Below, in pieces: positions 6,413 through 42,641 of a stretch of DNA of 64,000 nt (positions within the stretch are counted from its first letter, which is position 1; each line of letters begins with the position of its first letter). A program made the translations under genes and the position numbers. The notes under the pieces were generated by a model. The model was not told the DNA's origin and made no database searches. It saw nothing but the letters and a program-made list of their open reading frames with translations. The DNA is from Lytechinus pictus (Eukaryota), in assembly GCF_037042905.1 (NCBI RefSeq), contig NC_087251.1, positions 40,302,001 to 40,366,000 on the forward strand, given 5' to 3'.

Positions 6413-6445
6413 ATGGCTAGTAGGAAAAGGAAATCTCTGTCTTCT
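6413..6445 (+). CDS. KNL1: KNL1 coding exon 1 (MASRKRKSLSS)
   Basis: ttcacag acceptor, ATG at 6413, GTAAGT donor; supplies the SS of SSILK. Confidence 0.85.
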
Positions 6446-9400
6446 GTAAGTATCTATTGCCTTCCTTTTTAACAATAAATTTGGCCAATCATTTTTCTTA
6501 GAAAGTGTTTGGAAATGGATCTACTGGGGGGTGTTTCACAAAGATATAACTACATGTATGACTTAGAGTCACACTTAAATGTCTATTTGCATCCGTTTTA
6601 TAAGTTAAAAAATAGCCATGGCCGCAATTGGTTAGATCATGCCAAGAGGATGCATACAGCTGCATATTTATCGATAAGATTTCTTGTTGCATATCATATA
6701 TGCATCGGCATTTAAGAGTGATTTGAGTCGTACTTAAATCTTTGTGAAACACCCCCCTGTATGTCTACTTAGGTCAGATATAGTTTGTATAACCATGAAC
6801 CAGCAAGGAATAGTGTTTACTTTCCACAAAGTGATCTTGAACAACATGGATCTGCTATTCTACTCTTATTAGGGTATGTAGATAGTAAAATATACTTGAG
6901 TTATGGTAAGTAATAATTTGTGTTGATATTTTTCCAACTTTTGCATGCAATAGAAAGTGATTACTCTCATTTTATTCTCTTTCCAAGTTTCCACACTTGA
7001 TATTCAGGGCTTTTGAATAATCCAAGGCCACAGCTATGAATACCCTTTTGATTGGCCATGGAGACTTGCTGTGCCCCCTTTATTTCCCCCCAATTTTACT
7101 GAATGTGCCCAATAGAAAAGTGGCCATGCCCTAAATATAGAAAGTTGAGAAATGAAAATTTCTCATTAAAGTGATTAGACGATCCAGCTCCTTTTAGATA
7201 ATCATCTACATGTCTCTCTGTTAACCCTTATGTAACTGGAGGGGGGGGGGCTCAATTTGCACAGAGTGCCAATTTTTTACTGTACCACTTGCTGACTTTT
7301 TACTTTCAAAATATTGTGCATTGTTTGAGACAAAATTGTGTGGCAATTTGTAAGTTCACGTCGGACCAGTAATTGCTAATAACTTGATTTTGTGTACAAA
7401 ATCAATTTATATTGTGTTTTTAACCAAAAATCCTAAATATATGATTATATTTACTTTTGTTTGTTTAAATGGAGATATTTCATCAGGGTGTTACATTACT
7501 TTCTAGATGCACTTGCCCTGTTGGGCAAGTAAATTTTTAAATAGTTGGAATATACTTGCCCGAAAATATATTTCACTTGCCCGAAAAAATCCTTGAAAAA
7601 AAGTTGTACTTCTTTAAAAGAAAATATTATGGTTTTAGAAACCATTGACCTTTTTTCTCTCTTTTGACATGAACTGATGTACCTTGTTCTTGCATTTCTT
7701 TTACAAAGTGATTTTATCTTGCCCGCCATGACCAAATTTAGGGTGGGTATATCATATCGACCCTAATTTTCGAATTCTACTGTGAGAATTTTGCTTGCCC
7801 AATTCGGGCAAGTAGTTTTGGTCTTTACTTCAAAACACTTGCCCGACTATAACTTTTGCTTGCTCCGGGCAATCGGGCAAGTGCTTATGTAGCACCCTGA
7901 TTTCATGCTGTTTATGATGCAAAAGAGTCCCCGACAAAGTTCAAAGGAAAAGCAATACAAATCAAAACGTTGAAAAAACAAAGATTCATACAATGAACAA
8001 AACAGCAACATACATAGGAAACTAATTATGAAGGGAGGTCAATTTCACCCCCCCCCCCAAGAAAAAAACCTGGTCTGAAATAGCCCAGTTAAATTAGGGT
8101 TAAGAGAGCAAATGGTAATCTGTGCATGTAGTTGTGAAGAACAAGCTTGTACCAGTTATGAAAGTTTTGTCATGAAATGTAGTCCTTTCATTTTTGTTTA
8201 CCCTTCTGCTTCTTTCATATAGATACTGAAGACCGTGTCACCATCAAGGACTGCATTGTCTGATTTGAACCCAAACGTGAATGAACTACCGACTGATGAA
8301 ACAGTCCATCTAGATCTGTAAGTTTATAGCAGAATACATATACAATGACTATGCTATGACCATAATATTTTCAATATTTTCTTGTAAAATGACTAAAGAG
8401 AATTTGAGACCGCCATAGGACACTAGGCAACCCACTCTCGATGGCAGTCTCCTGTATTAACAATTTTCATGATTTAATTGTTTGGTAAAAAATTCCAATT
8501 TTGTTTGTGTTTTATATTACAAATCATTTCAGCTTTGTATACATCTAAATAGCAAATAGTCGACCGATACCTGTTGGCTGTTGTGTTATGAAATGAAAAT
8601 GTTAGTTTTAATTAAGTGCTCTTGAATTGAGAAAGGGTCGAAATATTTCTTATTACCAAGGACAGAGTAATCCTCAAAATTTACCACTTTGATTGCAAAC
8701 GTAACAAGTGTAAGGGGTAAGAGGGGGGGGGGGGCTTGAGATAGGCATATATGTGAACAAAACTTACATTCAGTCACATGACTATGTTGTAATCAACGTT
8801 ATGAATTCTCATCAGGATAGAGAAAAAGAAGCGGAGGTCCTCTAGGAGAGTGAGTTTTGCAGAGACCTACCAAGTCAAGTAAGTCATCATTTTTAGTTTA
8901 AATAGAGTCATTGTGTATTCCAAGATTATATCATTATCATCATCATATCAGCCATATTCAGCCCACTACAAGTCGAAGGCCTCCTCAAGTTGGTGCCAAA
9001 GGTGCTTGCCTTGTGCTGATGCAATCCACTTTGTGCCAATGATCTTTTTTCATATTTTCTGTTTTATTGAAAAAGTTGAAGAAAATCACAATATTTACAA
9101 GAATTATTGCACAAAATCAAGGAAATGAGAAGAAAAGAAAAATAATGAAACATTGCAGGACAAAGACTAAAAAAAATCTCTCATTCAAGGGTGAATTCCA
9201 TATTGGATTTAAGCCCTTTGTGCCAATGAACTTTGTGAGCTTGTCACTCCATCTCAATTTTGTCTCCCCCGATTTTGTGATCCGAGCCATGGTTTCCATT
9301 CTGCGATGCGTTTGGTCCATCTATTGTCATGTGATCTGGCAAGGTGGCCCGCCCATTTCCATTATATAATTGTACTCAATTTAATTCTTAGCACTTGGGC

Positions 9401-15400: not shown

Positions 15401-18400
15401 GAAGTATTGCTGAACATCCTCTATGAGTTTCAGGTCACATGACCAAGGTCAAAGGTCATTTAGGGTAAAAGAACTTTGGGCATCTTAGAGGTATTTGTTG
15501 CATTTCCATCGTAACTTTAAATTGTATGGAGCTAGTTCATAAAACTTGAACATAAGTGTAATCAAGTATCACTGAACATCCGGTGCGAGTTTCAGGTCAC
15601 ATGACCAAGGTCAAAGGTCATTAAGTTCAATGTACTTTGGCCAAGTTGGGGGTATTTGTTGAATTACCATTATAACTTTGAATGTTTATGGATCTAGTTT
15701 TTAATACTTAGACATACATGTAAGAGTGATCAAGTATCACTGAACATTCTGTGTGAGTTTCAGGTCACATGACCAAGGTCAAAGGTCATTTAGGGTCACT
15801 GAACTTTGGTCATGTTGGGGGTATTTGTTGAATTGGCATCATAACTTAGAAAGTTTATGGATCTAGTTCATGAAGCAGAGACATACGGGTAATCAAGTAT
15901 AAATGATTGTTTTGCACACATCTTAGATCACATGAACATGGTCAAACATACCTGCAAAGATGCTCAAATAGTGAACAACCTATGACTTCTCTATTGTACC
16001 AATACCTAGTATCTATGTTGGGATTAATGAATACTTTGGCCTCGTTGACTTTTTAAATGACTGCATAGATCTGCTTTTATTATCTGACATCTTACTCTCT
16101 ATTTTGTTTTGTGTGTAATAAAGGTTTGGAAACCCTGCTGTCTGGACCCATTAAACAGGAAGCGCATTCCATGACCTCGGTAGAGCAAGATCCGTACGGA
16201 TCCCCTTTTAAAAGGTAACTTTTACATGTACCTCATCAGGGTGCTACATAACTTTTTAGAAGCGCCTGCCTCGTCGGGCAAGTAAATATTTAAATAGTTG
16301 GAATATACTTGCCCAAAAATCTATTTGACTTGCCCGAAAAAATCCTTGAAAAAAAAGTTTTACCTCTCCAAAAGAAAGCTTTGCAAATTTATAAATCATT
16401 GACCTTTTTCTCTCTTTTGACATGAACTGATCTACCTTGTTATTGCATTTCTTTTTCCAAAGTGATTTTATCTTGCCTACCATGACCAAAATTAGGGTCA
16501 ATATCATATCATATTGACCCTAATTTTGGTCATTCTACTTTGAGAATTTTGCTTTCTACTGTGTGAATTTTGCTTGCCCAATTCGGGCAAGTAGTTTTGG
16601 TCTTTACTTCAAAACGCTTGCCCGACTCTAACTTTTACTTGCCCCGGGCCATCGGGCAAGTGCTTATGTAGCATCCTGACCCCATGTTTTTACGATTAGT
16701 GAGTGATGTGAATGTTTACTGCCCCGCTGCAACTGTGAAAATTAAATGCAACTTCATTTACAACTAGGGCTGAGTCGAAACGTTTAAACGCTGTTCAAAC
16801 GACCGGTAAAAGTATGAAGGTTTTCCTGTTTTGACATGTTGATTAAATTTCTCATTTCACATTTTACAGCTGAGAAATGTTTATCTTTTTCCCATATTTC
16901 CTTGAAATAATTTTAATTTAGTTGGAAACTATCAAGAAAATGAATAATATTCCCTTCTTTCTTGACTCTGAAAGATCATACTTTTAGTTGATGTCACCCT
17001 AGATCAACTATCATGAAAGACTGCGTGTGAGACCACAATAAAAAATATGCCAAATTTTGGCTATACAAATCACAAGATTCTGATTTATAGACCTAAGCTT
17101 ACATTTTATACCAATGGATAAGCCAAGAATAAGTCTTTGAACCATTGATATTGAATCTATTTATGTATTTTGGCTCATTTCCTCGACTTGAAAAAAAATT
17201 GTATCACTCTGAAACAGTCAAGAATGAAGTTTTGCTTTACCCATAATGCACTACAAATCAATCATGAAGTTCAATATCAATGATTCAATGACTTTTTATT
17301 GGCTTATCCACTGGCACAAAATGTAAGTTTAGTTCTTTAGATTCTCTATTTAATAGATTCTTGTAATTTGTTTTTCCTGAATTTGGCATGTTTTTATTGT
17401 GATCCCACATGTAGACATGTAAGTTGATCTAGTGTGACATCAACTGCCAAGTACGATCTTTCAGAGTCAAGAAGGAAATATTCTTCATTTTCATGATAGT
17501 TTCCAACTAATTCAAATTATTTCCAGGGAAATCTTGAAAATTGAAGGGCATTTCATGGATGTAAAGATATGAAATGTGACATTTCAGTAACTGTTGGGGA
17601 AGTTGTTAATGTTTTTTTTGCGTTTGAACGTTTTTCAAATAAATGTAATGACTCAGTCCTATAAAAAGCATGCATTAGGGAGTTGCACTTGATTTTTTTG
17701 AGCTGCATTTAAAGTTATGCATTTCTTCCAGCAAGGGGCCCATGGTCTCATAATCAGATAAAAAGTGTTCAAATATGTATATCGATGTTAGAGTGGATAA
17801 GGCATTAATCATTAACGTGATGTCCCCCTTAGATGTCTCAATGTCTGAGTAATGTTCCTTACAGTCTAATGAGATGGGCAATTTACTTATTGGCCTGTAT
17901 CATTATAATCCCGGTGCATGTGCTCCACCATTTTGTTCTGTTTGCGACTAATGAATATAGAGGGCATCAACACTTTGCAGCATTTGCGATCCAAACAGAG
18001 CAAAAAAAAAACGATACTGACCAATAATATCAAGCCAGAAAATTGAAAAATCCCGCTTTGTGCTATTATATAGCATCGTGAAAGTCTCAGATCTAGATAA
18101 GGAAATGAAGGTCTTAAATTGGTTAATATTATCAGTCTTTGGTGATTTTCTTAATTTCTTTGGTCGGTGCACTGGTCTGTACAGATTTGCACAGTGACCA
18201 CCTGGTTCAACTCAGGCTTAATTAGGACAATTTGAGTACGCTTGACTTTGTACCTTCAATTTTTTGTTTAACTGTTACAGGGCTGCTCAGCAACTTAACC
18301 AGTGTCCTCAAAATTACAACATGGAACAAAGGAAGAATGATATCAATGAAATTAGTGTGAAAAGCAGTTTCCTCAAGTCTGTAATTGCAGCAGATTCATC

Positions 18401-21400
18401 TTTTGCAGCGCCTGCATTTCGGTCTAATGCATCAACATCCAGACAACAGGCAGAAGATCAGGAAGACAGACCTAGAGGATCCAGCTTCAAGAACACCTTC
18501 TTGCAAGCAATTGTGGCTGCAGAACCATCCCCGTCTGATGCACTTGGTTCAATGAAACATCAAAGCCAGCCGCGGAATGTGGATCCTGGTATGGAGTTCA
18601 CAAATTGTTACGACCCCAGTGACATTACAAATAGATATGAAGGAAACAAAGAAAAGGTTGGAGACATCACAAGAATATTTGGAGGACAGGGAGATGGGTT
18701 TGAGAATGATAATGGGATGGATATGACCACATGCATGGGAGGTTTTGAGACAATGCAGAAGAAGCTTGAAAGGCCAGCAGCAGAATCGACAAGAATTTTC
18801 GATGCTGAGAACACAAACAAAATGGAACTGACAGAGTGCCTCAAGGGATTTGGAGGAATTTCATGTAGCACTAACAAATCCCTTGGAAGGACTTTGAATC
18901 AAACAGGAAACAATTTGAATTTTACTCAGGTGTTTGGTAAAATGTCAGAAAGTGATTATGCCGACATGCCCCATGAATCCACCGCAAGACTCCTCCAGAG
19001 AATTGACGATGCTATTGCTGGAAGCGATTGTAGTGGGGCCGAAACAACAGGGGTAGATAATAGCAAAACTGGCCACATGAATGTTTTGCACAGCACAAGA
19101 AATAATACTCAAAAGTCCATAGCCCTGGACACAATTCAAGAGGTTTCTTCATCCACAGTATCGATGTTAAATTCAACCTGTAGGGATAAATCAGCAGTGT
19201 CTGCATCCTCTGTACTTGAAGCCTGCACGGAAGATGATGAAATGGATATAACCACTTGCAGTAATTACACAAAAGACATCAGGATCAGGTCAGCTCAAGA
19301 AGAGATGTACAGGTCACTTGATAAAAATGAAGTGATGTGTGGCGTTGGCAATTCAGTATCTGCTGTAAAACCAAAGGTGGTGGTTTCATCTTCTGTTGTG
19401 GCAAAAGGAAGCGGTGGAGACCATACCAGAGTGCTTGACCAAGCCGCAGATGATTCAGCTGAAATGGAAATGACCTGCGCCATTACCCAGCCCCTAATCA
19501 AAGGTAATGAGGTAAAAGAAGAGCTTCCAAGGGCTCCAGCATTGTCAGATGAAGACAGAACTAGAGTTTTTACCTCAGAGGATACTGCCATGATGGAAAT
19601 GACATGTGTGGTGAGTGGAGCAAGTAGGTCAGCATTAAATATTGAGAGTGTCCATCAACAAAAAATGATACCTTCGTCAGTCGCAAGCAAAGTAGTGTCC
19701 CACACTCATTATGCAAAAGATGCCAATGACTCAGATGATATGGAAATGACCTGTGCCATAAATCAAACACTGATGACAGGTAGTCAGGCCAAGGGACAAC
19801 TCCCACAATTAACAGTCGTAGATGATAAAGACACAACCAGAGTATTTAACTCTGATGACACTGCAGCGATGGAGATGACTTGTGCCATGAATCAACCTGT
19901 TATCATAGGCAGTCAGTCAAGAGGGAAACCTCAAACCCTACAAGCAACTTCTAATGAAGACAAGACCAGAGTATTTAACTCTGATGACACTGCAGCAATG
20001 GAGATGACTTGTGCCATGAATCAACCTGTTATCATAGGCAGTCAGTCAAGAGGGAAACCTCAAACCCTACAAGCAACTTCTAATGTAGACAAGACCAGAG
20101 TATTTAACTCGGATGACACTGCAGCAATGGAGATGACTTGTGCCATGAACCAACCTGTTATCATAGGCAGTCAGTCAAGAGGAAAACCTCAAACCCTACA
20201 AGCAACTTCTAATGAAGACAAGACCAGAGTATTTAACTCTGATGACACTGCAGCAATGGAGATGACTTGTGTCATGAATCAACCTGTAATCATAGGCAGT
20301 CAGTCAAGAGGGAAACCTCAAATCCTACAAGCAACTTCTAATGAAGACAAGACCAGAGTATTTAACTCTGATGACACTGCAGCAATGGAGATGACTTGTG
20401 CCATGAATCAACCTGTTATCATAGGCAGTCAGTCAAGAGGAAAACCTCAAACCCTACAAGCAACTTCTAATGTAGACAAGACCAGAGTATTTAACTCTGA
20501 TGACACTGCAGCAATGGAGATGACTTGTGCCATGAATCAACCTGTTATCATAGGCAGTCAGTCGAGAGGGAAACCTCAAATCCTACAAGCAACTTCTAAT
20601 GAAGACAAGACCAGAGTATTTAACTCCGATGACACCGCAGCAATGGAGATGACTTGTGCCATGAATCAACCTGTTATCATAGGCAGTCAATCAAGAGGGA
20701 AACCTCAAATCCTACAAGCAACTTCCAATGAAGACAAGACCAGAGTATTTAACTCTGATGACACTGCAGCAATGGAGATGACTTGTGCCATGAGTGGAGT
20801 GAACACCTCAGCATTTTCCTTTAGGAATAAGCACCAAAGCAAAATACTGTCCTCAGCAGGGCTCTCTTCTTCAGGAAGAGAGCATGCTTCATCTTTTGCA
20901 TCAGGTTTGACTCACCTTGTGGACAATGATACAAATAAGGCCACTGAAGACACTACAACATGCTTTGAAAACACTACTTACTTGAGAAAACTACCAGAAG
21001 GACTGGCTTATCAGATGAGGACAAGGAAGGGAAAGCAAGGCATGGACATCTTGCAGAATGATGACACTGCGTGCATGGAAATGACTGAATGTGTAAGTGC
21101 ACCTCCAAGTATTTTCTCTTCAGAAAACGCAGATCTTCCTACAAATAAAGAACATGGAACGTCTCAACCAAAGATGATGAGGCAGCAGGACTATGAGAAT
21201 ACAAAGATATATGATGACGAGAACACTGGACACATGGAGATGACAACATGTATAGATGCACTTCCGTCAACGAAGATTAAGGGTAAGGCGTGTAGAGATG
21301 ATCAAACGCATGTTTTCAATAATGAGGATACTGCAAACATGGAAATGACATGTGTTGGGGTTGTCTTACCCCCGCTGTCAAAAGCAAAAAAGATTCCTAA

Positions 21401-24400
21401 AAATATTTCTGAGGAGCCAACACATATTTCTCAGTCTGAAGATCCTTCTACAAACATGGAATCGACAGCATGTGTGCTTTCCGGGAATTCAACATTAACC
21501 GTAAATGCACATGCAGGCAGACCTGTAAACTCTGATGTACTGGGTAAAACACTTCTTTTCAGCCAATCAACATGTGATGACACAGGAAAGAATCAGACCC
21601 AGTCTGAGACTTCGGATGTTGCATTCCCAAGAATGAAAGTTGAGCAAATGATTCTACCGCAATTTTCTACCGAATCAGAAATGAAGAAAACCCAACAAAC
21701 CACACAGGTTATTGATGTCAGCGCCGTGATCAATACTGAACAGTCTTTGAGAGATACAGATGATTTCAAGATTCAAGAAAAGAATGCTGCTGGAGAGGAA
21801 ATCCATCAGAAAGATGGTGAGATAAATATCAGTGGTGACATCCCTCATGACAAGACATCAGATACGTATACTCTAACTCACCCCGCTCTCCAACAGGATG
21901 AGGACAATCAGCTAGGAGAAGAACTAGCTGCACAGGAAAAGCTCCAACAGGGTCGCAACTTGGACACTTTCACCATCAATAACTCCTCTGTGACAGGGTC
22001 TGGGAAAAGGAAACTGAGTTCACTTACAGAGGGAATGTCACAAAGATCTACATCTGCTTCCAGTGAGGAAGGCAAGTCCAAGGCTAATGAAGAGGGGTCT
22101 TCTAGTTCACCTGACTCAGAATCACACGCATCATTTGTTTTGAAGGACAGTATCATCTTGCCAGACTGGATTGATGCAGAAGATGAGAAAGGAATTTTGG
22201 ATGAACTGCCCATTGATAATGACAACACTGAAGATTTGTGCATGACTTCAAACAAGAGGCAGAGAATTGATGATGGTAAGCTGGCTTTCTTGAATAGATA
22301 GGTTTTTAATGAATAATTTTTGTCTCGCATGAATGAACTTAGATTATGTTGGGGGAATCAAAACAAAATATTAACTGAGGTTATTTTTTTTAATGTCAAA
22401 ACTTGAAAGTATATGGATCTAGTTCATGAGACTTGGACATAAGTGTAATGTTATATAAATCAAGTATCAGTGAATATCCTGCATGAGTTTCAGGTCACAT
22501 GACCAAGGTAAAAAGTCATTTAAGGTCAATGAACTTGGCCATCATTATTTGAAAGTATATGGATATAGTTTTTGAAATGTGGACATAGTCGTAATCAAGT
22601 ATCACTGATCATCTTGCACAAGTCTTAGGTCACATGATCAAGGTCAAATGTCATTTAGGGTCAATGAATGTAGTATTTATTATCATGTGAATGTGGTTTT
22701 CTTTTTGGAATAATCATTTTATAGTATTTTTCAAGGTCGGTACTGCTGCTACATGTATATTGAATTGCGTAATGCAATGATACGAAATATGGCTAATTTC
22801 ACATCCTAAGCAAATTTGATTTTTTTTTTCTCATGATTAAGGATTGATCAAAAATTTAATTTTGGAACACTTTCAGTCATAAAAATAAAATGTACAGAAT
22901 GGAATACTGTACATAAGAAATTTACAAAACATTGAATAGCAAAAGAAAGTTTGACCCTTTTTCATAAAATTTTCACCAAATCTGTGCAAAAGATTTGATG
23001 ATAATACACCTAGTTTTAGTGAAGTAATAATTATATCAACAGATATACATGCATCTATTCATTGTTTTATTTTATAGAATAAATGTACAAAGAATTGCCT
23101 TACCCATGATTCTACATAGTGATATTTTGTTACAAGTATCCTGTCAAATTAAACCTATCAATTAAAATAAAAATCTATTTGGAATAGGGTCAGCACATAA
23201 ACAAGTGACTACTATACTAATTCACTATTGGTTACATCTCTGAACCTGTTGTATAAAAATGCAATATATCCTGCCTCAGAAGTTACTTTTCATTTTCAAG
23301 TATAAATTTGTTTTGATTTAGCAGCCGAATAATATCAGCTTTTGATTTAAATTCATTTATTGACAGCTGTCTTCACATCGTCTTACATGGATGCATCCCA
23401 TTTGACCTCTAACCTATCCCATCTGCCCTTGTCATCGGAGAGGGGTTCAACATCAGTGGAAGACTTCCTCCAAATGTTATTCAAGTTCAACGACCTTCCT
23501 ATGGGCAAACGTAGTGTGATGTGTCCCACCAAGGCAAGTACCGAATAATGAAAGACGTTACTTGGCAAACTGTGTACGATTTCAAAAGTATAATTTATTT
23601 CATACTGATTATACGCACATGCAACCCAAATGAATTAAAAAGAATGATTCATTGAAGGATGTATAGTAATAATAAATAATTTAGGATTTGTACAGCGCAC
23701 GTATCCACCTTGCTAGGTGCTCAAGGCACTCCAATGTTACCCCGGCTAAGCTAGTCTACTGATTCCGGTGCGCACAGCTTTTTTGAGGAATTACTTGCTG
23801 CCAGTACCCAGCACAATAATAATAATACATATGATTTATATAACATCTTTTCCATTTTGATTTAATGCTCGAGGCGCTTAGAAGAGAGCAAAATATAAAA
23901 GTAAAGAGAACTTAGAGAAGTACAAGAAAGGGTAAATAACAAATGAGGAAAATTTTCTGTCTTCAAACCTAGTACCTGCTGGTGAACAAATGCAATTTTA
24001 GGTTACCCTAATAGGGATAAATTTCTTGCTGAAGGAAAACACGCCATGGCTTGGAATCGAACCCACGTCCTTCAGATTGAAAGACAAGTATCTTGACCAT
24101 GAAACCACGACGCCCCCACATTTATACTAGTATAAAGATGAAAAAATATATACAAGAAAATGTCATAACTTTATTATTCTACATCTGATTTTGAAGAAAT
24201 CGTAAGTGTTATGCTTGTTGGATTTTTTTCCCTTTTTATTCAAATCAACTTTTTGATGGGGTGGACTTGTCCTTTAAGATCATAAGGGGGAGCTGAATTA
24301 GCCCCCTGTCTACTTGGGCGTCAAAGTAGCCCAGTCTTTTTAGGGTTAACTCATTCTTGTTGGGGTGGACTAGGTCTTTGATGTTTGTAGTTGACTCCAA

Positions 24401-27400
24401 ATTTATAAAGGTCTCCTTTTTTTTTTGTCCATTCAGATTACTGAGCCTTCTACACTAAGCAACCAATTGGAAGATACCTGCGTCATTAAACCTAAAGCTG
24501 ATATGTATGAATGGGCCATCAAATTCCTCACACCAACGGTTCAAGAGTAAGTTTTTTTATTGCAATAATGACAATTTATTTTCAATTCCAATACATATGT
24601 AGTCATAAAAGTTTTTGAAAAATATTGTTTTAAATTAAAAGTACTATGTGATTGCCTGTTTCGAAATTATGCAACATTTTGTAAGTGCATGTTCAAAAAC
24701 GTGATTTCATGTACAAAGTCAATGCAAATTGTGTTTTCAACCAAAAATAATAGATGTTTGATTAGTTTTGGTTTTGCTGGTCTAAATAGGTTTATTTCAT
24801 GCTATTTATGATTTCAAAAGAGTCGCTGACAAATTTCATCGAAAAAACAATGAAAAAAAGGTCTAAAAAACACATAAATACATGAGAAATTTATCTGATA
24901 TCGTAATTTTTTTCACTTTCATTTGCTAAGAACACCACAAAGAGTTTCTACACCAAAAATTAAAACATTTGGAGCTTTATTTAGAGTGTTTGAGGACAAA
25001 GTATGATTTTGCATACTAATTATGTATAAATTTGCATGAAGTAAATTAATAAATAATTTTGTAGATTATGTCCCAGACAACCTGTGTGCCTTTTTTCGGC
25101 GTGATTGATGGCCCAGGGCACCGTAACACAAAGATTAGCGATCAATCGCTAAATGAACTGACCAATCAATATCAATGTTACATGCGCATTAAGTTTAAAA
25201 TACTGACCAGGGACCAATCAGGGGTGTTCTCTTATATTTGCAATTCATCGCAAACCTTTGTGTTACGGGGCCCAGATCTCAAGGGGGGCCTGTCGCATAG
25301 TGTGTGCCGGGCTTTAGGCATCAAAATAGCTCAATTTTTTCAGGGTTAAAAGAAAAATGATCCCTCATTTTGTTTCGCCCGAGTAGCAGAGCGAGACTAT
25401 AGGCGCATTTCTTTCTGACGGCGGCGTCAACATTGAAATCTTAACCTAAGGTTAAGTTTTTTAAATGACATAACTTAGAAAGTATATGGACCTATGAATA
25501 GACTTAAGGGTAATCAAGTATTCTGAAATTTCTACCTGGGTTTCAGGTCACATGACCAAGGTCAAAGGTCATATACATGTAGGGTCAATGAATGTAGACC
25601 CATGTTGAGGAATCAACATCAAAATCTTTACCTAAGGTTTAGTTTTTGAAATGTCATCATTACTTACAAAGTATATGAACCTAGTTCATGAAACTTGGAC
25701 ACAAGGTTAATCAAATATTACTGAACATTTAATCGAGTTTCAGGTCACATGACCAAGGTCAAAGGTCATTTAGAATCAATGAACTTTGGCCATGTCGGGG
25801 GTATTTGTTGAATTACCATCATAGCTTTGATTGTTTATGGATCTAGTTTATAAAACTTGGACATGAGAGTAATCAAGTTTCACTGAACATCCCATGCGAG
25901 TTTTACGTCACATGACCACGGTTAAATATCATTTAGGGTCAATGAACGTATAATTATATTTTATGAATGGTGTTTTTTAAGAATGATTATTTTATAGTAG
26001 TTTTTAAAGTCAGCACTGCTGCTACATGTATATTGAATAACGTAATGCAGTCAAGACTGCTAGAGGCGCTCCACTTGTTAGCTGATGAAACCGATAATAC
26101 TAAGTTGCACAAAACTCAATAAAGTGCATAGTTATCGCACTGACTCATAAATTGATGTGAAGTCTACTTTCGTAAAAGCAATTGACATGATAGAATGGTA
26201 TCTATTTTTTGTGTATGTTACTGTATATTATACACTGCAAAATTAGTATTTTGTTTGTATTCTTGTAATTAAAGTTCAGTACTACTGAATGATCTGAGGA
26301 TGTTATATACGTGTAGTGATGGAGCCTTTTGTAACAATTCACTTTATGATTGCAGGGGCCGTGGAACAGTTTTCAAAGTGGGGGGGGGGGGGCTGACCAT
26401 GCAAAAAATCACAATTGTATGGTAAATTTTGTACATGTTTTTTTTTTCGCGGCTCCTGGATTGTACTAACACAATGCTATGATTTTCTCTTTGTAGGCTG
26501 AGGAAATCAGTGGCATCCCAAGATCCCAAACACTTTGAAGAGAATGTTCCCATTGTCAAGGAATTACAATCTGCTGGTCCTGAAAGAGTATGTTTTTTCA
26601 TTGATAGAAGGGTCAGATATTGTCAAGGGGTACACTATTTCAGGGGAAACAAGTTTTGAACGTGCCCATATGAGCATTGCAAGTAACTTACAATCAATAG
26701 GAAATGTTAGAACTCAAAATGATCTGGCAATTGATGGCAAATTTACAATCAATGCAGATTCTGTTTTTTACAACAGAAATTTTAAATTCAGTTTGGTTTG
26801 CTAGAGATATAGACAGTCGATTGGAAAGAATGCCAAAGAAGTTTCTTGCATCGCTCCCCAAGTTATGAGGTTAACAAGTGATATTTACAATCAATTACAA
26901 AGAACTTTCTAGCATCACTCGTCGAGTTTGCGTGTATGAGTCTATCCGTACTTTGATTTCTTTCCTCCAGCTGGTGTGCTGTGATCCGTAAAGGACAAGT
27001 CCACCCCTTCAGAAAGATTATTTGAATGAAAAGGAGAAAAATCCATTAATCATCACACTGAAGATTTAATCAAAATCGGGTTTAAATTAAGAAAGTATAA
27101 CATTCTAAAGTTTCGCTTAATTCTCGCTACCCCAAATAGCGATTTCGCCGAGATCCGGGAAAATCCCTGTAACGCGCATTGCATTATGGGATAGCTTTTC
27201 GGTATTACAACTTCCTGATCGGAAGTCCAATGCACTGTTTTGCCATTCAGATCAACCGTGCCGTCATGCACAACAACACAACGTCGCTTTCGCTCGGAAA
27301 GTTCGTGATCACAACCCTCTCTTTCACATTTTCACGTGAAATGTATTTTTTATTTCTATTTATAATTCAAATGGAATCAAAACTGACCAAATTAGATAAA

Positions 27401-30400
27401 AAGTATTATAATCTGTACATATTATGCTGATTGGCATCGATTTCAGCGTGGTGGAAAACTCAGTATCGCGAACCTCGCGCGAGCATGACTCTGAACCGGA
27501 AGTGGTGATGACGACCCGACGGAGTGAAAATTATCTCGTCTCGCGCATTATGAGATTTTTGTTCCTATTTGGGGTAGCGAGAATTAAGAAGAAACAGTTT
27601 TATGCTCATCATGGGGCCCGTTGCAGAAAGAGATGCAATCAATTGCAACTCTAAAAATCATGCGCAACGTGATTTTCAACCAATCAACAGCGCGCATTTG
27701 GGACTTGCGATCGATTTTTTGACTTGCGTTTAAACGCAACTCTTTCTGCAACGGGCCCCTGTTCAGTTTGCCAATGAGGGTACTGATAACGTCACCCACT
27801 CACTATTTCTTTTGTATAATGTCATTACATGAAATATAAAATATTTTAGTTTGCTCATTGTCATGTGAAACAGATTTATTCCTCCCTGAACATATGGAAT
27901 TACCATTGTGTTAAATTTGTTGTGTTTCTGTCAAGTTGGTCATCATTGTCGAATCTGTAAGAAATAAGCGAAACTTTCCTTCACTGCTATAAATGGTAGT
28001 TACTTTTATTTCTCTCCCCCAGTGTTCTGAGATACTTGAGAAAGGAAAGAATCTGGAGAAGTATTGTAAAGCGTCTTCGAAAACTAAGATGAAGGGTTGG
28101 AGGCTGCAAATGATCAAGAATACCAGGACAGCCATGCAGGTAGGAATATCATGTTTTAGATCAACAAAATAAAGTAGGACAGGTAATTTGCATACATTGA
28201 CTCGCCAACAGTCCAATATCTCCCTAGCCTGAGCAGCTTTTCAGATAATGCAAAAAATATATACCTCAAATTTCTCGTAACTTGAAAATCATTATGTGGT
28301 CCCAAAAGGTTTGATTTTGACCAAGTTTCCTGCATACAAATATCAGACTTAAATGGTCTTTTGTTTATATTCAGCCATTACATTTGAAAAGTATTGCATA
28401 TATTCTCCGTGACCCACTCTGTATCCATGTGCAAGCTTCTGTGATTATATTTACTAGCGTTGTTTATTTGGAGTGCTAAGATTGAGGATATGTTCAGTTT
28501 GAAGTTTGGACAGCAAGAGACTAGTAACAGTTTAGTATAGTTGATTTCATATCCATGATTCGTTACTTAAAATAATAATAATAGTTAATACATGTATTCA
28601 TAGTGCTTATTACACTTTGTTTCTAAGCGCTTTACATTGTAATTATTATTACACCGGTCATCGGATCCTGACATGCCCGCACATTTTATATATGCACTTT
28701 CTCCACTCCCTGGGAGCATACCAACAGGAGTTCCAGGACTCAATTGCTAGGCATCCTTCCGGGTACCCATTTAATACCTGAGTGGAGTGTTGCAAATTGT
28801 GGATTGATGCCTTGCCAAAGGACGCTAGGCTTTGGTGGGATTGGAACACACGACTTGCAAGGCGAGAGTCCAAACTGCTACACCACAACTCTTCCATAGT
28901 AAAAGCAGTATGAAAATGAAAGAATGCTTATAGCTATATCAACTGCAATGTACGAGGGATATGAATAATAATGCCGTTTATAATATGGTGGCAGCAGCAG
29001 TGCTTTCAACATTGAAATCTTAAACCAAGGTTAAGTCTTTTAAATGTTGTCACAACTTAGAAGAAAGTATATGGAGCTAGTTCATGAAACTGGGACATAG
29101 TTGTGATGAAGTATCACTGATCATCTTTCATAAGTTTCTTTCAGGTCACATGACCAAGTTCAAAGGTCATTTAGGGACTTGGATCTATGAACTTTGATCA
29201 TGTTTTGCTTATCAACATTGAAATCTTAACCAAGCCAAGGACAAGTCCATCCCAACAAAAAGTTGATTTGAATAAATAGAGAAAAATCCAACAAGCATAA
29301 CACTGAAAATTTCATCAAAATTTGATGTAAAATAAGAAAGTTATGACATTTTAAATATTCGCTTAATTTCACAAAACAGGTATATGCACATCCTGGTCAG
29401 TATGCAAATGAGACTGATGACATCATCCACTCACTATTTTTTTGTGTTTTATTATATGAAATATTATAATTATCTCATTGTCAAGTGAAGCAAAAATTGA
29501 TCCTCCCTATATGCTTCAGTCTAGTTGGTCCTTATTGTCAAATCTGTAAAAATTGAAATATTGTATAATTCAAACAATAAAAAACAAAAGAAATAGTGAG
29601 TGAGGAACATCATCGACTGTTTCATTTGTATGTCACTGATTTGTGCATATAACTGTTTTGTGAAAAATAAGCAAAACTTTAAAATCTCATAAGTTCATAA
29701 CTTTCTTATTTTACTTTCAATTTTGATGAAATTTTCAGCGTTAAGGCTTGGTCACACTGCACTTAGGGATACAGAGAGGATATAAAATGGATAAGAATCT
29801 TGCCATCCGTTTGAAAATGTTATGTATCCATTGTGTACTATTTGCATACGTGTTTCATACGCTCTATATCCATTGAGCATCCATCCACTCTGATTTCATT
29901 GTTCGCCCATTTTGTCCATTGTCTGGAGCAGATAAAAACGGATGGAGCCACCCCAAAATTTTGCTTGTCCGCTGTATCCGTTATGAGTACGTTTGTGTCT
30001 GTCGGTCAGTGGAACCAGGCCTTTTATCTCTATTTATTCAAATCAACATTTTTCTTGGGTGAACTTGACCTTTGGGTTTTTGAGATGTCATAACTTATCA
30101 GTATATTGATCTTTTGCTTGAAACTTGGACATAAGAGTAACCAAGTATCACCGATCATCGTGCATGAGTTTCTGGTCACATGATTATTAAGGTCAAAGGT
30201 CATTTAGGATTAAAAACATTGACCATGTTGCAGTTATTTTTTGAAGGGTTATCATAACTTTGAAATTTTATGGATCTGGTTCATGAAACTTGGATATAAG
30301 GGTAATCAAGTATCATTGATCATTTCGTATGAGTTTTAGTTCACATGATCAAGGTCAAATGTCATTTAGGGTCATATCATATGAATGTTTTTTTTATAAT

Positions 30401-33400
30401 TATTAATCATCTTCGTTGTTTTCAAAGTTACCACTGCTGCCATATTGTATCATGTAATGCAGGTGAGACTGCCAGAGGCATTTGTTTACATATTAATTAC
30501 CTTGGTCATATGCCTGTCTTGCCTGTATACAATGTACTTTTTCCACTCCCTGGGGAGCATTCCAGCTAGAATTTCAACTCAATTGCATAGCATACTGCAT
30601 TAAATGAAGAGTGGTAGATTTAGCCATCTTGGATAAAATGAAATTTCATGGGCTGCTCTTTTTTTGCACATTATTTGGCCCCTAAAAACTATTGTGTTTA
30701 TTGGCTGGAGCTGTGCCTGAATGAAGGCCATTTTGGTGTATTTCTTTGGCAGGATTCAAGCCAGCACTTTGGAAACAAGCTAGCCAAGGTGACAAGTTCA
30801 ATATCTACAATTGAGGAACTGTTACAGCAATTAAACTCTGGTAAGTCTTATATAGTCATAGAGGTAGGCTATAAATTAATGATGTTTCAGTTTGCTTAGT
30901 GCACCAGCATAAACAAAGAAGGGCATTTCCTGAGCTTTTGATACCTCATTTATCAAATTGGTCCAAAATTGAGATGGTGCCACCCAAAGTATTAGTTTGG
31001 TACCATGGGACCATTCCCCATTGAAGATGTGTATATTATGTATTTTTTGACATATTTTGTCACTTTTTGGGGGGCAATAAATCTACCGCACAAAGTATTT
31101 TGAAAGCCTCTCGCTGACTTTTTACTTTCAAGACTCCTGCAACTTTTGAGACCAAATTCGCGACACCTGGGTGTGCGGTTCTGAAGTTACGCACCATAAG
31201 GTAAATAAATGTCAGTCCCAACATTGCTCAAAAATGTGATTTTATGTACACTGTACAAATCCAACACTAATTCTATTGTCTAGCCAAATTGGAAAATGTT
31301 TCATTGTTATTTGCTTTTACTGACTAAAAGCAATTGATTTCATGTTATTAATGACTGAAATAGTATCGCTGATGATTTTCATAACAAACAAAGAAATACA
31401 TATTGTAGGTCGAAGGAATGGCTGTCTGCTGATCTCTCCCAGCTACACGTATGACTCCCGGGGGGGGGGGGGTCTCTAATTGACCTGGGCCCTACTTGAG
31501 TTATCAATTATTCAATTTTTTTTTTCAATATTGAATAATTTCAATAGAGCGTGTAGAGCTGGATGTAAGCTACAAGACTGTAAAGTAAAAGTTTAATATT
31601 TTGAAAATTTTACTTTACAGCATCCAAGATAGACCTGTATGAAATGTTTTAGCCTTCATGTCAATGTTTTTGCCTTTAATTCCCTTTAAGTAGCTCTTAA
31701 AAAGCTTATTTTCTGTGAAAATATTAATTTTGACTTTTCTATCAAATATCTACAAAAAATTTGCCAAAACAATTAATTTCGTATTTATTTTTTTAAACTC
31801 TTTTTATTGTTTTTCTTTTTTATTTGATGAAATAAGTCTGAGACACTTTTGCAATCATAAAAAGCATAAAATACATCCATTTTAACCAGCAAAATTAAAA
31901 CTAATATTTATGTCTTACACTGTAAAGTGCATAGAGAGAGTTGTTTTTATTATGCACTTAATAAATCAATTTTTTTAATTATTATTGTTATAATCATACA
32001 GTTATGATTTTGTTGGGAAACACAATTTGCATTGACTTTCTACACAAAATCATGTTATTGAGCAATTTTGAGTCTGACATGCTCTTATAAAATGTTGCGT
32101 AATTTCAGAACCGCGTACCCGGGCATCGCAAATAAGGTCTCAAAAGATGTGCAAGTGAAAAGGCAGTGAGCAGCACAGTCGTAAAATTTTGCCTGGCAGT
32201 GTGGTCATGAGATTTGTCGACCCCCCCCCCCCCCCCCCCCCCCCCGTTAACTTATTGCAGTGATGATATTTGGAAAATAATTTGTTTTTTTAACTTGATA
32301 CATGTATTATGATATAGATTCATTGTTATTGTTTTTTTAGTTGAGAGTTCATTGGATGATGCAATCAAGAGCATAGAAGAAATGAAATTGCCGTCTGAAG
32401 GAGAGAAATCAGAATGGATTGCAAATCAACAACGATTGGAATTAATGGAAACAAATCTCAAAGAACAAGAACGGGCAGTACAAGAGACTGAATGGTTTGT
32501 TGATATCTTCATTCGAAATGATTATCTTACAAGCTAACAAGTACTGTAAGAGCTGTTATTTTTGCATATATAATTTTTCACGAATCGCTGGGGTCCCAAC
32601 ATTTTTCGCGGGTTGCTAGACATGTATACCAAACACTTCCACAGCATTTCAGAGCACTAATAACAGTGCAAAACATGCAAAAATATGCTTCTCAAAGTCC
32701 TCATGCTGACATGTATTTTGTACATAAATATGTCCATGTAAAAGAACAGTTGGTGGGAAAATAGTGGCTTAAATTTCACTTTTTGTCTCGCCCACCAGAG
32801 GTGAAGGCGAGACTAAGGGATCCAAATGTCTTCCGTTGTCCGTCCGTCACAAACATTATGACACAACTCTGCAACCGTATATCACTTTTCAACCAAACTT
32901 GGATGGTAGATGTACTTAGGGGACCTGCATGTTATGCTGCAGTCAGAGGTCACATGTAAAGGTCAAATGTCATTTTCAGGTCAACGTTACAGTTTACATG
33001 CAAGACTCTTATGACACATAACTTTGCAACCGTAAGTTGTTATATGTTATTTCAACCAAACTTATGGATCTAGTTCATGAAACATAAGAGCAATTAAGTA
33101 TCCTTGAACATCCTGTGCGAGTTTCAGGTCACATGAAGCATCGACGTAAGGGTAATCAAGTATGAATGGTTGTTTTGCACATGTCTTAGGTCACATGATC
33201 ATGGTCAAAGGTCATTTTGGGTCAATGGACATAATATTTTATTTTCATATTAGTGTTTTCTTCTAAGAATAATTATTAATTAGCTGTTCTCAAAGGCAGC
33301 ACTGCTGCTATATCGAACTGCGTAATGCAATTATTTTCATAACAAGTTATTTGTTCTTCTTTAAAAAGATATTTATTGACTTCCATTTTGTCTAAAGTTA

Positions 33401-36400
33401 TGCCTTTTGAATGGGTGATGGTATTGGTATATGTTATATCCCAGACTGATCGATACATAGAAACTCACACACACTTTCTGATTTTGTTGATTATTCAGGA
33501 GGAAAAGATTTGGTGTGCTTAATAAGAATATTATCTTTTTCATTACTGGAGAAATATTTGAAAAATCTAGTTTCTATTCAATATTAGCTCCTTGTTGAAA
33601 GTTTGAGAGTTTTAACATGATTTCTCCTTATGATTTTTACATTCAAAAAGTAGATTATAAACTGCTCAAAATGTCTTAAAATTATATTCCACTTTGACTA
33701 CTTCATTTTGGAATAAAATTTGGTTTTATGTGTTGATTGTTGTAAAGCTCCCACTTTTAACATGATGGAACTGAAATGAAATGATTTTGACTTATGTTTG
33801 CAGCAAGAGGAGAAGGTTAGAAGGAGAGGTAAAGAGTTTAGAGGATAGTACGATGAAGCTGGAGGCAGAACAAGAAATACTGAGCAGATCTGGAAAAGTA
33901 ACCAACCAATCAGAGACAGATATAGAGAATATGAAGTCAGAGATCCTCCTCCTCCAAAGGTAATAATATTTATCATTTCATTAATATTCAATAAAAATAC
34001 ATCAATGTCAAGTAACCTATCGCTTGCATATGAGCTTGTCATTTCTCTAAATTTGTTAATGTGACTCATTGGCATATGCAAGATATGTTATCTCTAATTA
34101 TTATTTAGATGTAGGGTTTTAGAGGCGCAGATATTTTTTGACGTCTTGCGAGGTTGTTTCAAAGAGACAAAATATTAAAAGTGATTTTTAACGTGCATGC
34201 CTATGAAACCATCCGACGAAATGATTATTTTGCCGCGCCCACAAGATTATCATTGGTTAATAAATGATTGTGCGCATGAAGCTATTGTTACGTCATTTCG
34301 TTGCGTATTAGTTGCCAGGAGGTGTGGTAAAGGAGCGTCAATTTATTGAATTCAAATGTGCTTGCACTATACGCTTGCGCATCTTTACTTCATTACAGAG
34401 ATTTCTTTTTTTTAAATGACAATACTCAGGCGCCATGCTCATGATTTACAGGATTGCCATTGATGATGGTTACTGACATTTTTGGGGGGTTCATTACTTT
34501 ATTTTTAGCTTTGTGGGGGTATCTAAATAATAATATTGGATGACCAGTTTTCGTGAGATGCGTAGAAATATTGTTACTCGCTGAAGAACAATATTTTTTC
34601 GCATCCCACATAAGGCCATCCAATATTCCCTAAGTATTTTGGTTGGTCTGGGGAGCATTTCATGAAATAGTGATTTTGCTGACAACTGTTATAAACTACT
34701 GAAATCCTTGCATCTGATTTGCTCAGAACAATTAGTCAGTGAAAAGCCACTTGCTCCTTGCTACATGGAACAATATCTAGCTGCAGTTAGCACTCCCCAA
34801 ATCAATGATAGCATAATTTCTTTGTTTTTGTGTATATAAATTTAGTGGAATGCAATGGAACATTTACACATATTTGTACATGATTCTCATGGCAGGATCT
34901 TATTGTTTAAGTTGCGTAACAAGCTGCTGTTTTTCCCCATACCTCTTCTACAGCCTTCAAGAATGGAGACTGCAAGCTTTCCAAGAAAATAATTACAAGT
35001 TTTCATCCCTTGGCAAATCAATATTACTCCACATAAAGTATGGTGAGTGGAATTAGTTTTTCAATCATTTATTTCACTCCGTTACTTGAAATATGGTTTG
35101 AGGATGCCCTATTATTTGTTCATTGTATTCCTGGCACTTATTTTTCCTAGATTTATATTGTCAAAAAAAGAAGTGAAGGAAGCAAAGCTTAATTTTTGTG
35201 TAGAAGGTAATTTGTCCCAAATTTACAAATAAAGTTTTTTAACCTTGGGATTATTTAAAAATCCCTCCTCGTATTGTTGGTTTTATGAAAACGACATGGT
35301 AAGAACATTTGGCATTGTAAAATTATCACAAAAATTTAAACGGTGGCTAGATCAGCCACCCCCCCCCACATTTTTTGTCTCGCCTGCATAGCAGAGCGAG
35401 ACTATAATACGCCCCGCTTTTCCAACGGCGGCGGTGTAAACATTGAAATCTGAACCTAAGGTTAAGTTTTTGAAATGTCATCATATCTAGTATGAAGTAT
35501 ATTGACCTAGTTTGTGAAATCTGGACATAAGGGTAATCAAGTATTACTGAAAATCCTGCCTGCGTTTTAGGTTGCATTACCAAGGTCAAAGGTCATTAAG
35601 GGTCAATGAACTTAGATTATGTTGAGGGAATCAAACAAAATCTTAACTGAGGTTAATTCTTTTTAAATGTCAAAACTTTGAAAGTTTATAGATCTAGTTC
35701 ATGAAATTTGGACATTAGTGTAATCAAGTATCACTGATCATCTTGCACAAGTCTTAGATCACATTATCAAGGTCAAATGTCAATTGGGGGTCAATGAGCA
35801 TGGTCTTTTATTGTCATATATGAAAGATGTTTTTTGTGAATAATTATTCTATAGTCATTCTTTAAGGATGATGCTATATTGAATCACATATTGCAGGCGA
35901 GACTGCCAGAGGCACTCCACTCGGTTTTTTTTTTAGGGTTCTATATTTTTATGTAATGTTGGCCATTGAGTCTGAATATTGTTTTGCATTCAGATTTCTT
36001 CGGCAAGCAAGGATTCATGTATTCATGTGTAAATTCTAAATTGAATTTTTTTTTTTTTTGGGGGGGGGCAATTCCATGAAATAACTGACATTTTTGTATG
36101 TCAGACCCCCATTTTTGTCCATTCATCCTTCGCTTCATGAAGTGCTCAAGCAAGAAAATATTGAGAGGTTTTCAACATTCATGTAAACTAAAAATTAGAG
36201 ACATATCAGGAAGACCCCGGTCAGATGTACACAATCACATGTACGTTTATTCATATTTTTCTTCCACATGTTCTATAGGTGACAAAGAAAGAGGTAACAA
36301 GTTGATTGATGTCACATTACATAGTGTGCTTGCACGTAAGTATCTTGAGTGATTCTTTCCAATATAATAATGAGAAGTCATTAATGGGTTTTATTAATTC

Positions 36401-39400
36401 AATATTGTATTGGAAAAAACCTGAAAGCTTTGTTTATATATAACTTTTCCAGAGGATACAAAGCGAAACTATTATTACCCCAGCTGTAGGTTGAGCTGCC
36501 TCTTAACCTTATCTAGGCCGGGGTATTTTGGGAGATCATATGGCCAGGTGGGGGGGGGGGGGGGCTGCCAGGGCCCCCCCCCCCTTGGCCGTCGATCGTG
36601 CTGAAAATTGACAGGCAGGTTGTCTGGGATGTAGTCTACAAAATTCTATATTAATGTATTTAATGCAAATTGCTATTAATTGATTATGCTAATTTATGCA
36701 TAATTAGTATGCAAAATCGTACTTTTTCCTCTAACTCCCTAAATAAAGCTTCAAATGTTCTAATTTCTGGTGTAGAAACTCTTTGTGGTGTTCTTAGCAA
36801 ATGTACAGGAAAAAAATTGTGATATCAGATCAATTTCGTATGTATTATATTATTTTTCAATTTCTTATGTATTTCTTTGTTTTTCGGACCTTTTGTGTTT
36901 CATTGGTTTTTTATGATGAACTTTGTTGGGGACACTTTGAGATCATAAAAAGCATAACATAAATCCATTTAGACTAGCAAAACTAAAAATTATCATACAT
37001 TTATTATTTTTGGTTGAAAACACAATTTGCATTGACTTTGTACACAAAATCACGTTTTTGAGCAATTTTTTATCTGACATGCACTTACAAAATGTTGCGT
37101 AATTTCGAACTGGCGTACCCAGGTGTCACAAATTTGGTCTCAAAAGATGCGCAAGACTTGAAAGTAAAAAGTCAGCATGGTAAAAAAAAATTCAAGTGGC
37201 CAGGCCCCCCCCCCCCCCCCCCCCCGCCTAGATAGGGTTAATTTTTGTGCATATAGTCAATGGATTCAATGAGTTAATCCTGTCAGGTACCAATTCACCT
37301 CACTTGGGTTGAGAGCAGCAAGATGTGGGTAAATTTCTTGCTGAAGGAAAACATGCAAATGCTGGTATTCAAACCCAGAGCCCTTTGTTTGAAAGATGAG
37401 AGTTAGAACCAAGCTAGGTTCATTGATTTCTGTTTTGCTTTTATTTTTATTTTTTAGATGATGCCTGTAGCTCAGCTAAACTTGCCCATTCACTATTCTT
37501 CAGCAGTGTAAATACAGACCAGTTAAAAACTCTCTATCCAACTTATAATGACCTTCCACAGGTAAATCTTGCTTGTTATTTCCCCTATCTCCTTGTGTCT
37601 CTATGTCTGTCTATTAGAAGTTTCGCTCTGACTTAGCCTTTTTGTTATTTTGTGGTGAATATTTCTGACTGGTTACAGAAATATGCTCAGAAATATGTAC
37701 AGTATGTGAATCATTAACCTTTATGCATTTTGTCGATACATTCCGTTTTTTAATCACACACAAAAAGTGCTTCTTTACTTTTCCGTGGGTGGTTGTACTG
37801 GTGTGTTTTTTCCCTCTCTCTGGTCTCATAGTACTAAGTGAGTAAGGCTTCAACAGAATTTCAAACCTTGCCTATTTATAAGCAAATGGATGCAAATTTT
37901 ACATTTGAAAATTCGTTTGCACCAAATCTGCCATCCACACACTGAGGAAAATGTAAATGAATTTCAGGATATTATTGTTTCATGACCATCATAAATGTAT
38001 GTTGATATGGTTGCATCAATTTTTGCTTTCTAGATGATGCAACATATGTCAGAGTTGGTTGGTCAGGTCAGGTTGCTCGAGGCCGAGGTTAGTAGAATAG
38101 ACTTCTGGCATCCAGTTACTACAACACACAACAGGTATGACTACTTTCATTTGTTTTCCCTCGTCATCATAGCTTGCATGTAATGAACAGTCCTGGGTTC
38201 TTATTGATAACAATAAACAAAGATCCGTTGAGAGATCAATGTCAAGTGCAAGTGTAGAAGTGATGGTAATCTCATTACTTTGGGTATGTTAAAGTTCACA
38301 AGGTCATAGAGAGCATTATATATCCCCACAAATATTTTGTTCTCTGACCTTTTGATGTCTAAAGAACTGTTTGAGGATTCAACATAAAACTCGGCTATAA
38401 TGTGTTCAAACTGATCTGATTAGATTATTTGTTCAAATGTTGCAGGTCATTACATGTACATACTTGGTAATACCTCACTTTTGCGATAATTGAACGGTTG
38501 AAAACCTTTGGATCCGCGCCTGTTCACTGAGGGTCGTTACTTGAAAATTGTAGAAGTTAGGGGTGTTGTGTATTCTTGATTTGGCAATGGCACAGGCATA
38601 AATTTTTAACTAAGTTCAGTTGAGAATCGATCTAGTTTTATTGTATTGCCTGCATAGCAGAGTTAGACTGTAGACACTGCTTTCCAACAACATCGCTTTC
38701 TACATTGATTGATGAACGTAGTATTTGATTATCATATGAATGGTGTTTTTTGTGAATGATTTAGTGAATAATTGTTCAATAGGTTGTTGTTTTCAAAGTC
38801 AGCACTGCTGGTATTATGAATCACGTAATGCAGACGAGACTGCCAGAGGTGTTCCATTTGTTTCCTGTTATAACTGATTTTTCTTTTCTTTTTGACCGCT
38901 ACCCTCTTGTATAATGTGTTTTTTCAATTTTATTATATTCATATGTATCAAGATTGTGCTGAGAAAGATATATGATACTATTGTTCATTCAAATCAACTT
39001 GTAGGCCTTGATACACCCTTTAAGCCCTCGGCTAAGATGGGTCCAATAACCCAGCCCTATTAGGGTTAGCATACTTTATAACATTTTGGAAATTGCAACT
39101 CTCATCATTGATGGTATAGAGACAGTTGAGTGATTTCTATGGAGGAAATACAAGGTAGTCATTAAAGGACAAGCCCCCCCCCCCCCCAAAAAAAAAAAGT
39201 TGGTTTGAATAAGAGAAAAATCCAACAAGCATTACACTGAAAAATTCATCAAAATCGGATGTAAAGTAAGAAAGTTATGACATTTTAAAGACTGATGACG
39301 TCATCCTCTCACTATTTCTATTGTATTTTATTATATCAAATATGAAATATTCTTCTTTTCTCCTCATTGTCATGTGAAACAAGGTTTTATTTCTCCTAAA

Positions 39401-41838: not shown

Positions 41839-42641
41839 TTTTGTCTCACCTGCATAGCAGAGTGAGACTATAGGCACCGCTTTTCCCACGGCGTCGGCGT
41901 CAACACCAAATCTTAACCGAAGGTTAAGCTTTTGAAATGTCATCCTAACTTACAAAATATATGTACCTAGTTCATGAAACTTGGCCATAAGGGTAATCAA
42001 ATATTACTGAACATCCTGCCTGAGTTTCAAGTCACATGACCAAGGTCAAAGGTCATTTAAGGTCAATGAACTTTGGCCATGTTGGGGGTATTTGTTGAAT
42101 TACCATCATAACTCTATAACTGTATTGGTCTAGTTCATAAAACTTGGACAAAAGAGTAATCAAGTATCACTGAACATCCTGTGCGAATTTCAGGTCACAT
42201 GACCAAGGTCAAAGGTCAATGAACTTTGGCCATGTTGGGGGTATTTGTTGAATAACCATCATAACTCTGAAAGTGTATGGATCTAGTTCATAAAACTTGG
42301 ACATAAGAGTAGTCAAGTATCACTGAACATCTCATGCAAGTTTCAGGTCACATGACCAAAGTCAAATGTCATTTAAGGTCAATGAACTTTGGCCATTTTT
42401 TGAGGTAATTATTAGATTGCTGTCATAGCTTTCAAAGTTTATAGATATAGTTTATAAAATGTGGATATAGGGGTAATCAAGTTACTGACAGGTCCTAGGT
42501 GTCGCATGATCAAGGTCAAATGTCATTTATTGTCAATGAACATAGTATTGTATCATTTGAATTGTGTTTTTGTGAATAATTATTTTATAGTAGTTTTCAA
42601 AGTCAGCACTGCTGCTATATTGAATTGCGTGATGCAGGTGA
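41839..42641 (+). mobile_element. Helentron/DINE-1-like element
   Basis: Same family with four tandem units; further copies near 22320-22780, 28990-30480, 32782-33330, 38645-38860 and 61750-61968. Confidence 0.7.

Follow-up and report, generated by a model that had tools for sequence, protein, structure and literature searches.

Does the block of nearly identical MELT modules in a sea urchin KNL1 gene record a very recent burst of new Bub3-Bub1 docking sites, or an older tandem that looks young because its units keep exchanging sequence, and does its length differ within the species? The question arises from a window of 64,000 nucleotides of Lytechinus pictus DNA (contig NC_087251.1, positions 40,302,001 to 40,366,000; positions below are those of the window). 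A preliminary description, made from the letters alone, had proposed a very young 129-bp expansion that added about 7 of ~19 docking sites. Our analysis makes it likely that the block is a homogenised set of TxxF-MEMT docking modules in KNL1 that unequal crossover and gene conversion continue to maintain under purifying selection, with haplotypes that differ in unit number.

The KNL1 gene and its docking modules

The open frame that carries the array matches a Lytechinus pictus protein (P0002) at 100% identity across 99% of the frame. The exons of P0002 were placed by tblastn from 6413 to 40926 in 17 matching pieces, which left aa 1573-1640 and aa 1859-1889 unmapped. The gene had been described as KNL1, and this assignment was confirmed. 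P0002 contains the Spc7 domain (PF08317, E 6.7e-12, 45.6 bits, above the Pfam cut-off of 34.5) and the Knl1_RWD_C domain (PF18210, E 8.6e-11, 42.6 bits, above the cut-off of 27.8), and it matches the human KNL1 structures 8q5h (E 8e-10) and 4nf9 (E 2e-8), with aa 1707-1765 aligning to the corresponding part of 8q5h. The KNL1 set of Tromer 2015 includes an orthologue from S. purpuratus (PMC4558858, supplement). As in the KNL1 proteins of that study, SILK and RVSF PP1-docking motifs are both present at the N-terminus and MELT-like repeats occupy the middle region: 17 motifs in the large exon fit M[ED][LIVM]T, and 19 are counted with the near variants MEFT and MEST, in agreement with the earlier count of ~19 docking sites. 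Pfam matches to MELT itself reached 24.2 and 19.9 bits, short of the curated cut-off of 30. A Pfam match to Fer4_15 (E 1.6e-11) had no passing stretches and was discarded as an artefact of summed repeat matches, and so were PPV_E1_DBD and weaker matches. The features of the gene are as follows.

6413..8318, + strand: first two coding exons (at 6413 and 8223), with the start codon and a SILK motif split across the intron
8817..8879, + strand: exon with the RRVSF PP1-docking motif (8844)
18281..22275, + strand: large KNL1 exon (aa 148-1479 of P0002), with all 19 MELT-like motifs; splice ends read from sequence
19707..19835, + strand: older module 5' of the array, degenerate (MEMT retained, TxxF lost); 72/129 nt match the unit
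19836..20793, + strand: TxxF-x7-MEMT tandem array, 7 full 129-bp (43-aa) units and a 55-bp half unit, 8 modules in frame
23366..32492, + strand: Spc7-domain exons (aa 1507-1685) and residues on to aa 1721; two short exons (aa 1573-1640) unmapped
33805..40926, + strand: exons of the C-terminal Knl1 RWD region (aa 1725-1967); aa 1859-1889 unmapped

Eight copies at an exact spacing of 43 aa had been reported, and the same arrangement was recovered here. The 16-aa motif starts at 19836 + 129n (n = 0-7), and TRF gives a period of 129, 7.5 copies, 96% matches, 0% indels and a score of 1799, the highest among its 21 rows in the window. The match of the eighth unit extends for 55 bp and ends at 20793, and the whole array sits in frame within a 1351-codon open frame. 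The order of the T/I and E/V variants along the units (TE, TV, TE, IE, TV, IE, IE) was reproduced exactly; A17V in unit 4 is an additional variant that the first list lacked. Pairs of full units differ at 1-7 nt per 129 (mean 3.4%), and all seven are distinct at the DNA level.

An upstream TxxF/Y, located 6-10 residues before the MELT, is present in 12 of the 19 MELT-like motifs, and 8 of these 12 complete modules belong to the array. All eight array modules combine TxxF/Y with the M-[E/D]-[L/I/V/M]-T core, the TxxF sitting seven residues ahead of MEMT in each unit. The human T-Omega-MELT module is likewise a TxxF upstream of M-[E/D]-[L/I/V/M]-T, and human KNL1 has 19 modules (Vleugel 2013, PMC3871444), as compared with 19 MELT-like motifs in L. 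pictus. MEMT is also the motif of the yeast Spc105 MELT2 phosphopeptide that was crystallised on Bub3 (Primorac 2013, PMC3779320). Because the array units fit both, homology argues strongly that they would dock Bub3-Bub1. In vertebrate modules, however, an SHT motif follows the MELT, whereas in L. pictus it is missing and a cysteine is found there. By established homology with the yeast and human systems, Mps1 would phosphorylate the MEMT threonine, Bub3-Bub1 would then bind, and PP1 docked on SILK/RVSF would reverse this docking. Upstream of the MELTs, at 18363-18510, the window also has two SSFL/TFL motifs, repeated in starfish orthologues too, which resemble the KI-type TxxFL motifs (the resemblance is to those described in Vleugel 2013, PMC3871444).

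Gain and loss of modules among echinoderms

When MELT modules were matched one by one with those of S. purpuratus, the array block corresponded to a single ancestral unit together with the last half unit, so that 2 modules had become 8. The 11 of 19 motifs outside the block matched S. purpuratus modules one-to-one. S. purpuratus modules 5 and 13 had no counterpart in the window, although a second L. pictus record (P0014) retains a remnant of module 13. Thus, the figure of about 7 added sites needs revision: the local gain is +6 modules, two other modules were lost, and the overall gain is +3 (19 vs 16 MELT-like motifs).

Complete TxxF/Y-MELT modules number 8 in S. purpuratus, 11-12 in Diadema, which has no array, and 12-16 in starfish. 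From these sequence counts the array looks like a replacement of decayed modules and not an unusual surplus, and its complete modules would offset those that decayed elsewhere in the protein. The same counts bear on the possibility that the array is a very young, species-specific burst that added ~7 strong docking sites and whose copy number tunes checkpoint gain. The excess of 12 complete modules over the 8 of S. purpuratus would suit such a burst; however, the gain is only +6 locally and +3 overall, and Diadema reaches 11-12 complete modules without any array.

Related duplications are common. Near-identical MELT duplications (at least 2 modules with at most 3 differences in 30 aa) were detected in 7 of 15 other orthologues and none in the remaining 8, in a tally of non-independent records that had been retrieved through their similarity to the query. 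Some unnamed orthologue records contain blocks of 3-4 near-identical MELT modules, and KNL1 of Asterias amurensis exceeds that of A. rubens by one 43-aa module. KNL1 of the brittle star Amphiura filiformis (XP_072032658.1, P0026) also has eight near-identical TxxF-MEMT modules in tandem, at aa 1030-1366; its period is 48 aa and its unit sequence is different, and it would represent an independent expansion. In the same part of the exon, S. purpuratus KNL1 (XP_030854204.1, P0015) has a recent duplication of a 44-aa unit, and an ENA record (P0003) has a 118-aa two-module block twice; unlike the L. pictus array, these comprise only two copies each, in proteins with 16 MELT-like motifs.

Further KNL1 records differ in this region. 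The P0028 protein, a second S. purpuratus record (LOC115923493; also P0022 and P0029), has 693 aa and 2 MELTs, the second of which runs straight into the Spc7 region, so that nearly the whole array is missing; either a gap or a faulty gene model on an alternative haplotype could account for this, or the protein may be a genuine short form. P0003, which has its 118-aa two-module duplication in place of the 44-aa one in P0015, shares 96% identity with P0028 across 150 aa; identity between the two S. purpuratus records is 94%. It is possible from these records that MELT array structure is variable within or near S. purpuratus too.

Homogenisation of KNL1 arrays by unequal crossover was described in lamprey, Blumeria graminis and drosophilids (Tromer, Snel, Kops 2015, PMC4558858). 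The L. pictus array shares with them, as they are described there, the expansion of a single module with few DNA substitutions (1-7 nt per 129 here, as in class 2, homogenisation, of that study), edges occupied by older modules in decay, turnover by unequal crossover, and purifying selection on the motifs. Unlike those arrays, it replaces only 8 of 19 modules; with 11 motifs outside the block, the second trait of class 2 is absent and homogenisation is partial. The L. pictus array is a new example of the repeat turnover already described for this protein.

Transcription of the array and differences between haplotypes

A tandem array may be misassembled, and a read-depth check for this had been suggested. 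RNA reads were used for this purpose: 4 of the 23 listed runs were aligned, with ~6% of each raw run read, and the alignment target consisted of the left flank and unit 1, so that reads from all units stacked on one unit. The two raw RNA runs, X21 and X22, carry the same species label, and their haplotypes are unlike that of the window (~70 variant places each). In the aligned pairs the first mate was always on the minus strand, which corresponds to sense transcription if the library is of the usual stranded type. Over the three unit bins, depth was 7.6/6.6/6.2 times that of the flank in X21 and 7.0/6.4/5.8 times in X22 (8.2/7.5/6.8 times its near flank); the first bin thus stood at 7.0-8.2 times the flank in both raw runs. 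These ratios are probably lower bounds owing to edge losses, and such depth separates neither alleles nor counts of 7, 8 and 9 units. In the two runs 244 and 278 reads jumped back by exactly 129 bp, while 44 and 35 left the unit at 19890 into the right flank. Depth and go-back reads together establish that the array is real; the array is therefore transcribed as a tandem of ~7-8 copies in other animals or haplotypes. The X2 contigs are not independent support because they show 0 differences from the window over 18675-19865, and the copy-number estimate leaves their depths aside.

The junction reads also revealed a unit ending that the window lacks. A last codon of the type seen in the module bordering the array (joint 19956 to 19828) was carried by 10 of the 244 junction reads in one run and 24 of the 278 in the other, counted from explicit joints only, and by 0 of the window's array units. 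Loose read ends at 19828 (42 and 41 reads) were initially considered as one border-type variant unit and were dropped, since the aligner can stretch ordinary junction reads to this position. In the degenerate module that precedes the array, the RNA runs contain two distinct segregating 3-bp deletion alleles at 19708-19714.

P0014, the second L. pictus record, contains nine modules, each 43 aa from the next, compared with eight in the window; it is known here as protein only, and the comparison of 8 with 9 rests on two database records. P0014 is a distinct haplotype, with 54 substitutions from the window protein in 1644 aligned flanking residues. The units differ as well: T34 occurs in 4 of 7 full units in the window and in 0 of 8 in P0014, V41 in 2 of 7 and 0 of 8, respectively, and units cluster by haplotype record (exact permutation, 280 of 6435, p 0.044). 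Four P0014 units are identical as protein, and its unit 3 ends like the module bordering the array. This ending and the border-type junction reads point to exchange with the border module and to turnover since the haplotypes parted. The number of complete TxxF/Y-MELT modules is 12 in both records. Outside the array, the window lacks at 21075-21160 about nine residues that P0014 keeps as the decayed remnant of S. purpuratus module 13, and in P0014 the module after this remnant has lost the aromatic of TxxY.

These records suggest that unit number probably varies within L. pictus (8 vs 9), in line with the earlier proposal that copy number may be polymorphic. Under an alternative that we consider very unlikely, the array is real and its number fixed, and one of the two records contains a mistake of assembly or gene modelling. 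Assembly is known to go wrong in tandem arrays, P0014 is represented by a protein with four identical units, and an RNA depth of 7-8 that does not separate alleles would be compatible with a fixed number. However, the two records are different haplotypes whose units differ in kind as well as in number, the window units are all distinct in DNA with mostly silent differences, which random error would not give, and reads from other haplotypes carry a unit ending missing from the window.

Tromer 2015 compares species (PMC4558858), whereas here two haplotypes of one species differ in unit count and unit variants; the words 'polymorph', 'population', 'individuals' and 'urchin' are absent from the main text of that paper. 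Our literature search, which covered titles and the beginnings of abstracts and was thin on subscription papers, found no report of this array and none of KNL1 repeat-number variation within a species. Haplotypes that differ in module count (8 and 9) and in their unit variants would catch KNL1 turnover in progress, and natural length alleles would open population-genetic, transmission and cell-biological tests.

Age, selection and possible consequences

The units contain 13 distinct substitutions, 10 silent and 3 replacement, an excess of silent changes over that expected from site counts (p 5e-5 to 3e-4); the protein identity of the array is therefore kept by purifying selection. A comparison of units with flank showed no significant excess of constraint on the units (Fisher p 0.31). 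Mean pairwise divergence among units is pS 0.109 and pN 0.013. The units had been called nearly identical even at synonymous sites; the near-identity stands, but its synonymous part was overstated. Three variant sites are shared among units in a pattern that shows exchange, and all four gametes are found at unit columns 90/122, which supports the unequal crossover or gene conversion proposed previously.

For comparison, silent divergence between alleles is at least ~0.05 (19 silent variants, frequency-weighted, over ~280 silent sites), a lower bound taken from 33 flank rows for X21 and X22 among 40 of 106 variant rows. A close relative, organism B, differs at 47 of 1139 bases over three listed flank pieces. 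Its summed contig depth is 169/134/62 on the unit and 5-13 on the flank, contig depth being no measure of copy number, and several short variant contigs cover the unit with the same exit point, 19890, as in L. pictus. No go-back joint was present among the organism B contigs listed, and no protein of a Lytechinus congener was among the matches listed in sequence searches. From the contig signal, the array is probably common to organism B and hence older than the split of L. pictus from this relative.

With unit silent divergence (0.11) above that between alleles, and an array-like signal in organism B, the near-identity of the units is better explained by exchange and purifying selection than by a very young burst, and the label 'very young' is not upheld. 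Likeliest, the array is at least as old as the polymorphism of the species and looks young since its units keep exchanging. One ancestral 43/44-aa module would have multiplied, probably before L. pictus split from its close relative, and the array would since have gained and lost units and swapped variants, giving haplotypes that differ in count (8, 9) and make-up.

The burst with checkpoint tuning introduced above is, on this evidence, unlikely. In its favor, units differ by just 3.4%; in yeast, MELT number and affinity set checkpoint strength versus responsiveness, and excess strong MELTs delay anaphase (Roy 2020, PMC7292645); and sea urchin embryos have an Mps1-dependent checkpoint from first cleavage (Chenevert 2020, PMC7290841), with Mad2 overexpression blocking mitosis in L. 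pictus (PMC7290841). On the other hand, BUB1 load in human cells is additive, and six modules, even identical ones, give near-normal load and alignment (Vleugel 2013, PMC3871444), a near wild-type state that tells against tuning. Carried over from yeast and human, a one-unit difference would most likely lie on a functional plateau and be near neutral.

What drives KNL1 repeat turnover was left open in Tromer 2015, where genetic conflict was raised as a possibility for homogenised arrays (PMC4558858). Under conflict, centromere drive or selfish chromosomes would cause the turnover, and longer arrays would bias or suppress transmission through female meiosis. The same region is independently duplicated in other sea urchin records, as such a driver might produce, but the amino acids of the L. 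pictus units are under purifying and not positive selection, and we regard this explanation as highly improbable. There is also a slim chance that KNL1 alleles of different length segregate in wild L. pictus and alter the kinetochore load of Bub3-Bub1, acting as a heritable dial on checkpoint strength or meiotic transmission. If so, they would provide a within-species test of what drives the turnover. Repeat turnover of this kind has been described before and is frequent among echinoderm orthologues, and a difference of one unit may do nothing.

Several other features were detected in the window. Related tandem repeats of 153-162 bp occur in intronic and intergenic positions (15388-15900, 41941-42371 and ~22400-22700) and probably belong to a dispersed sea urchin repeat family. 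Two clusters of related 42-bp repeats (55555-55931 and 58610-58918), whose unit looks self-complementary, are possibly transposable element ends. In addition, an open reading frame at 62745-63212 matches ribosomal protein S12/S23 (PF00164, E 1.7e-27) and looks like mitochondrial S12.
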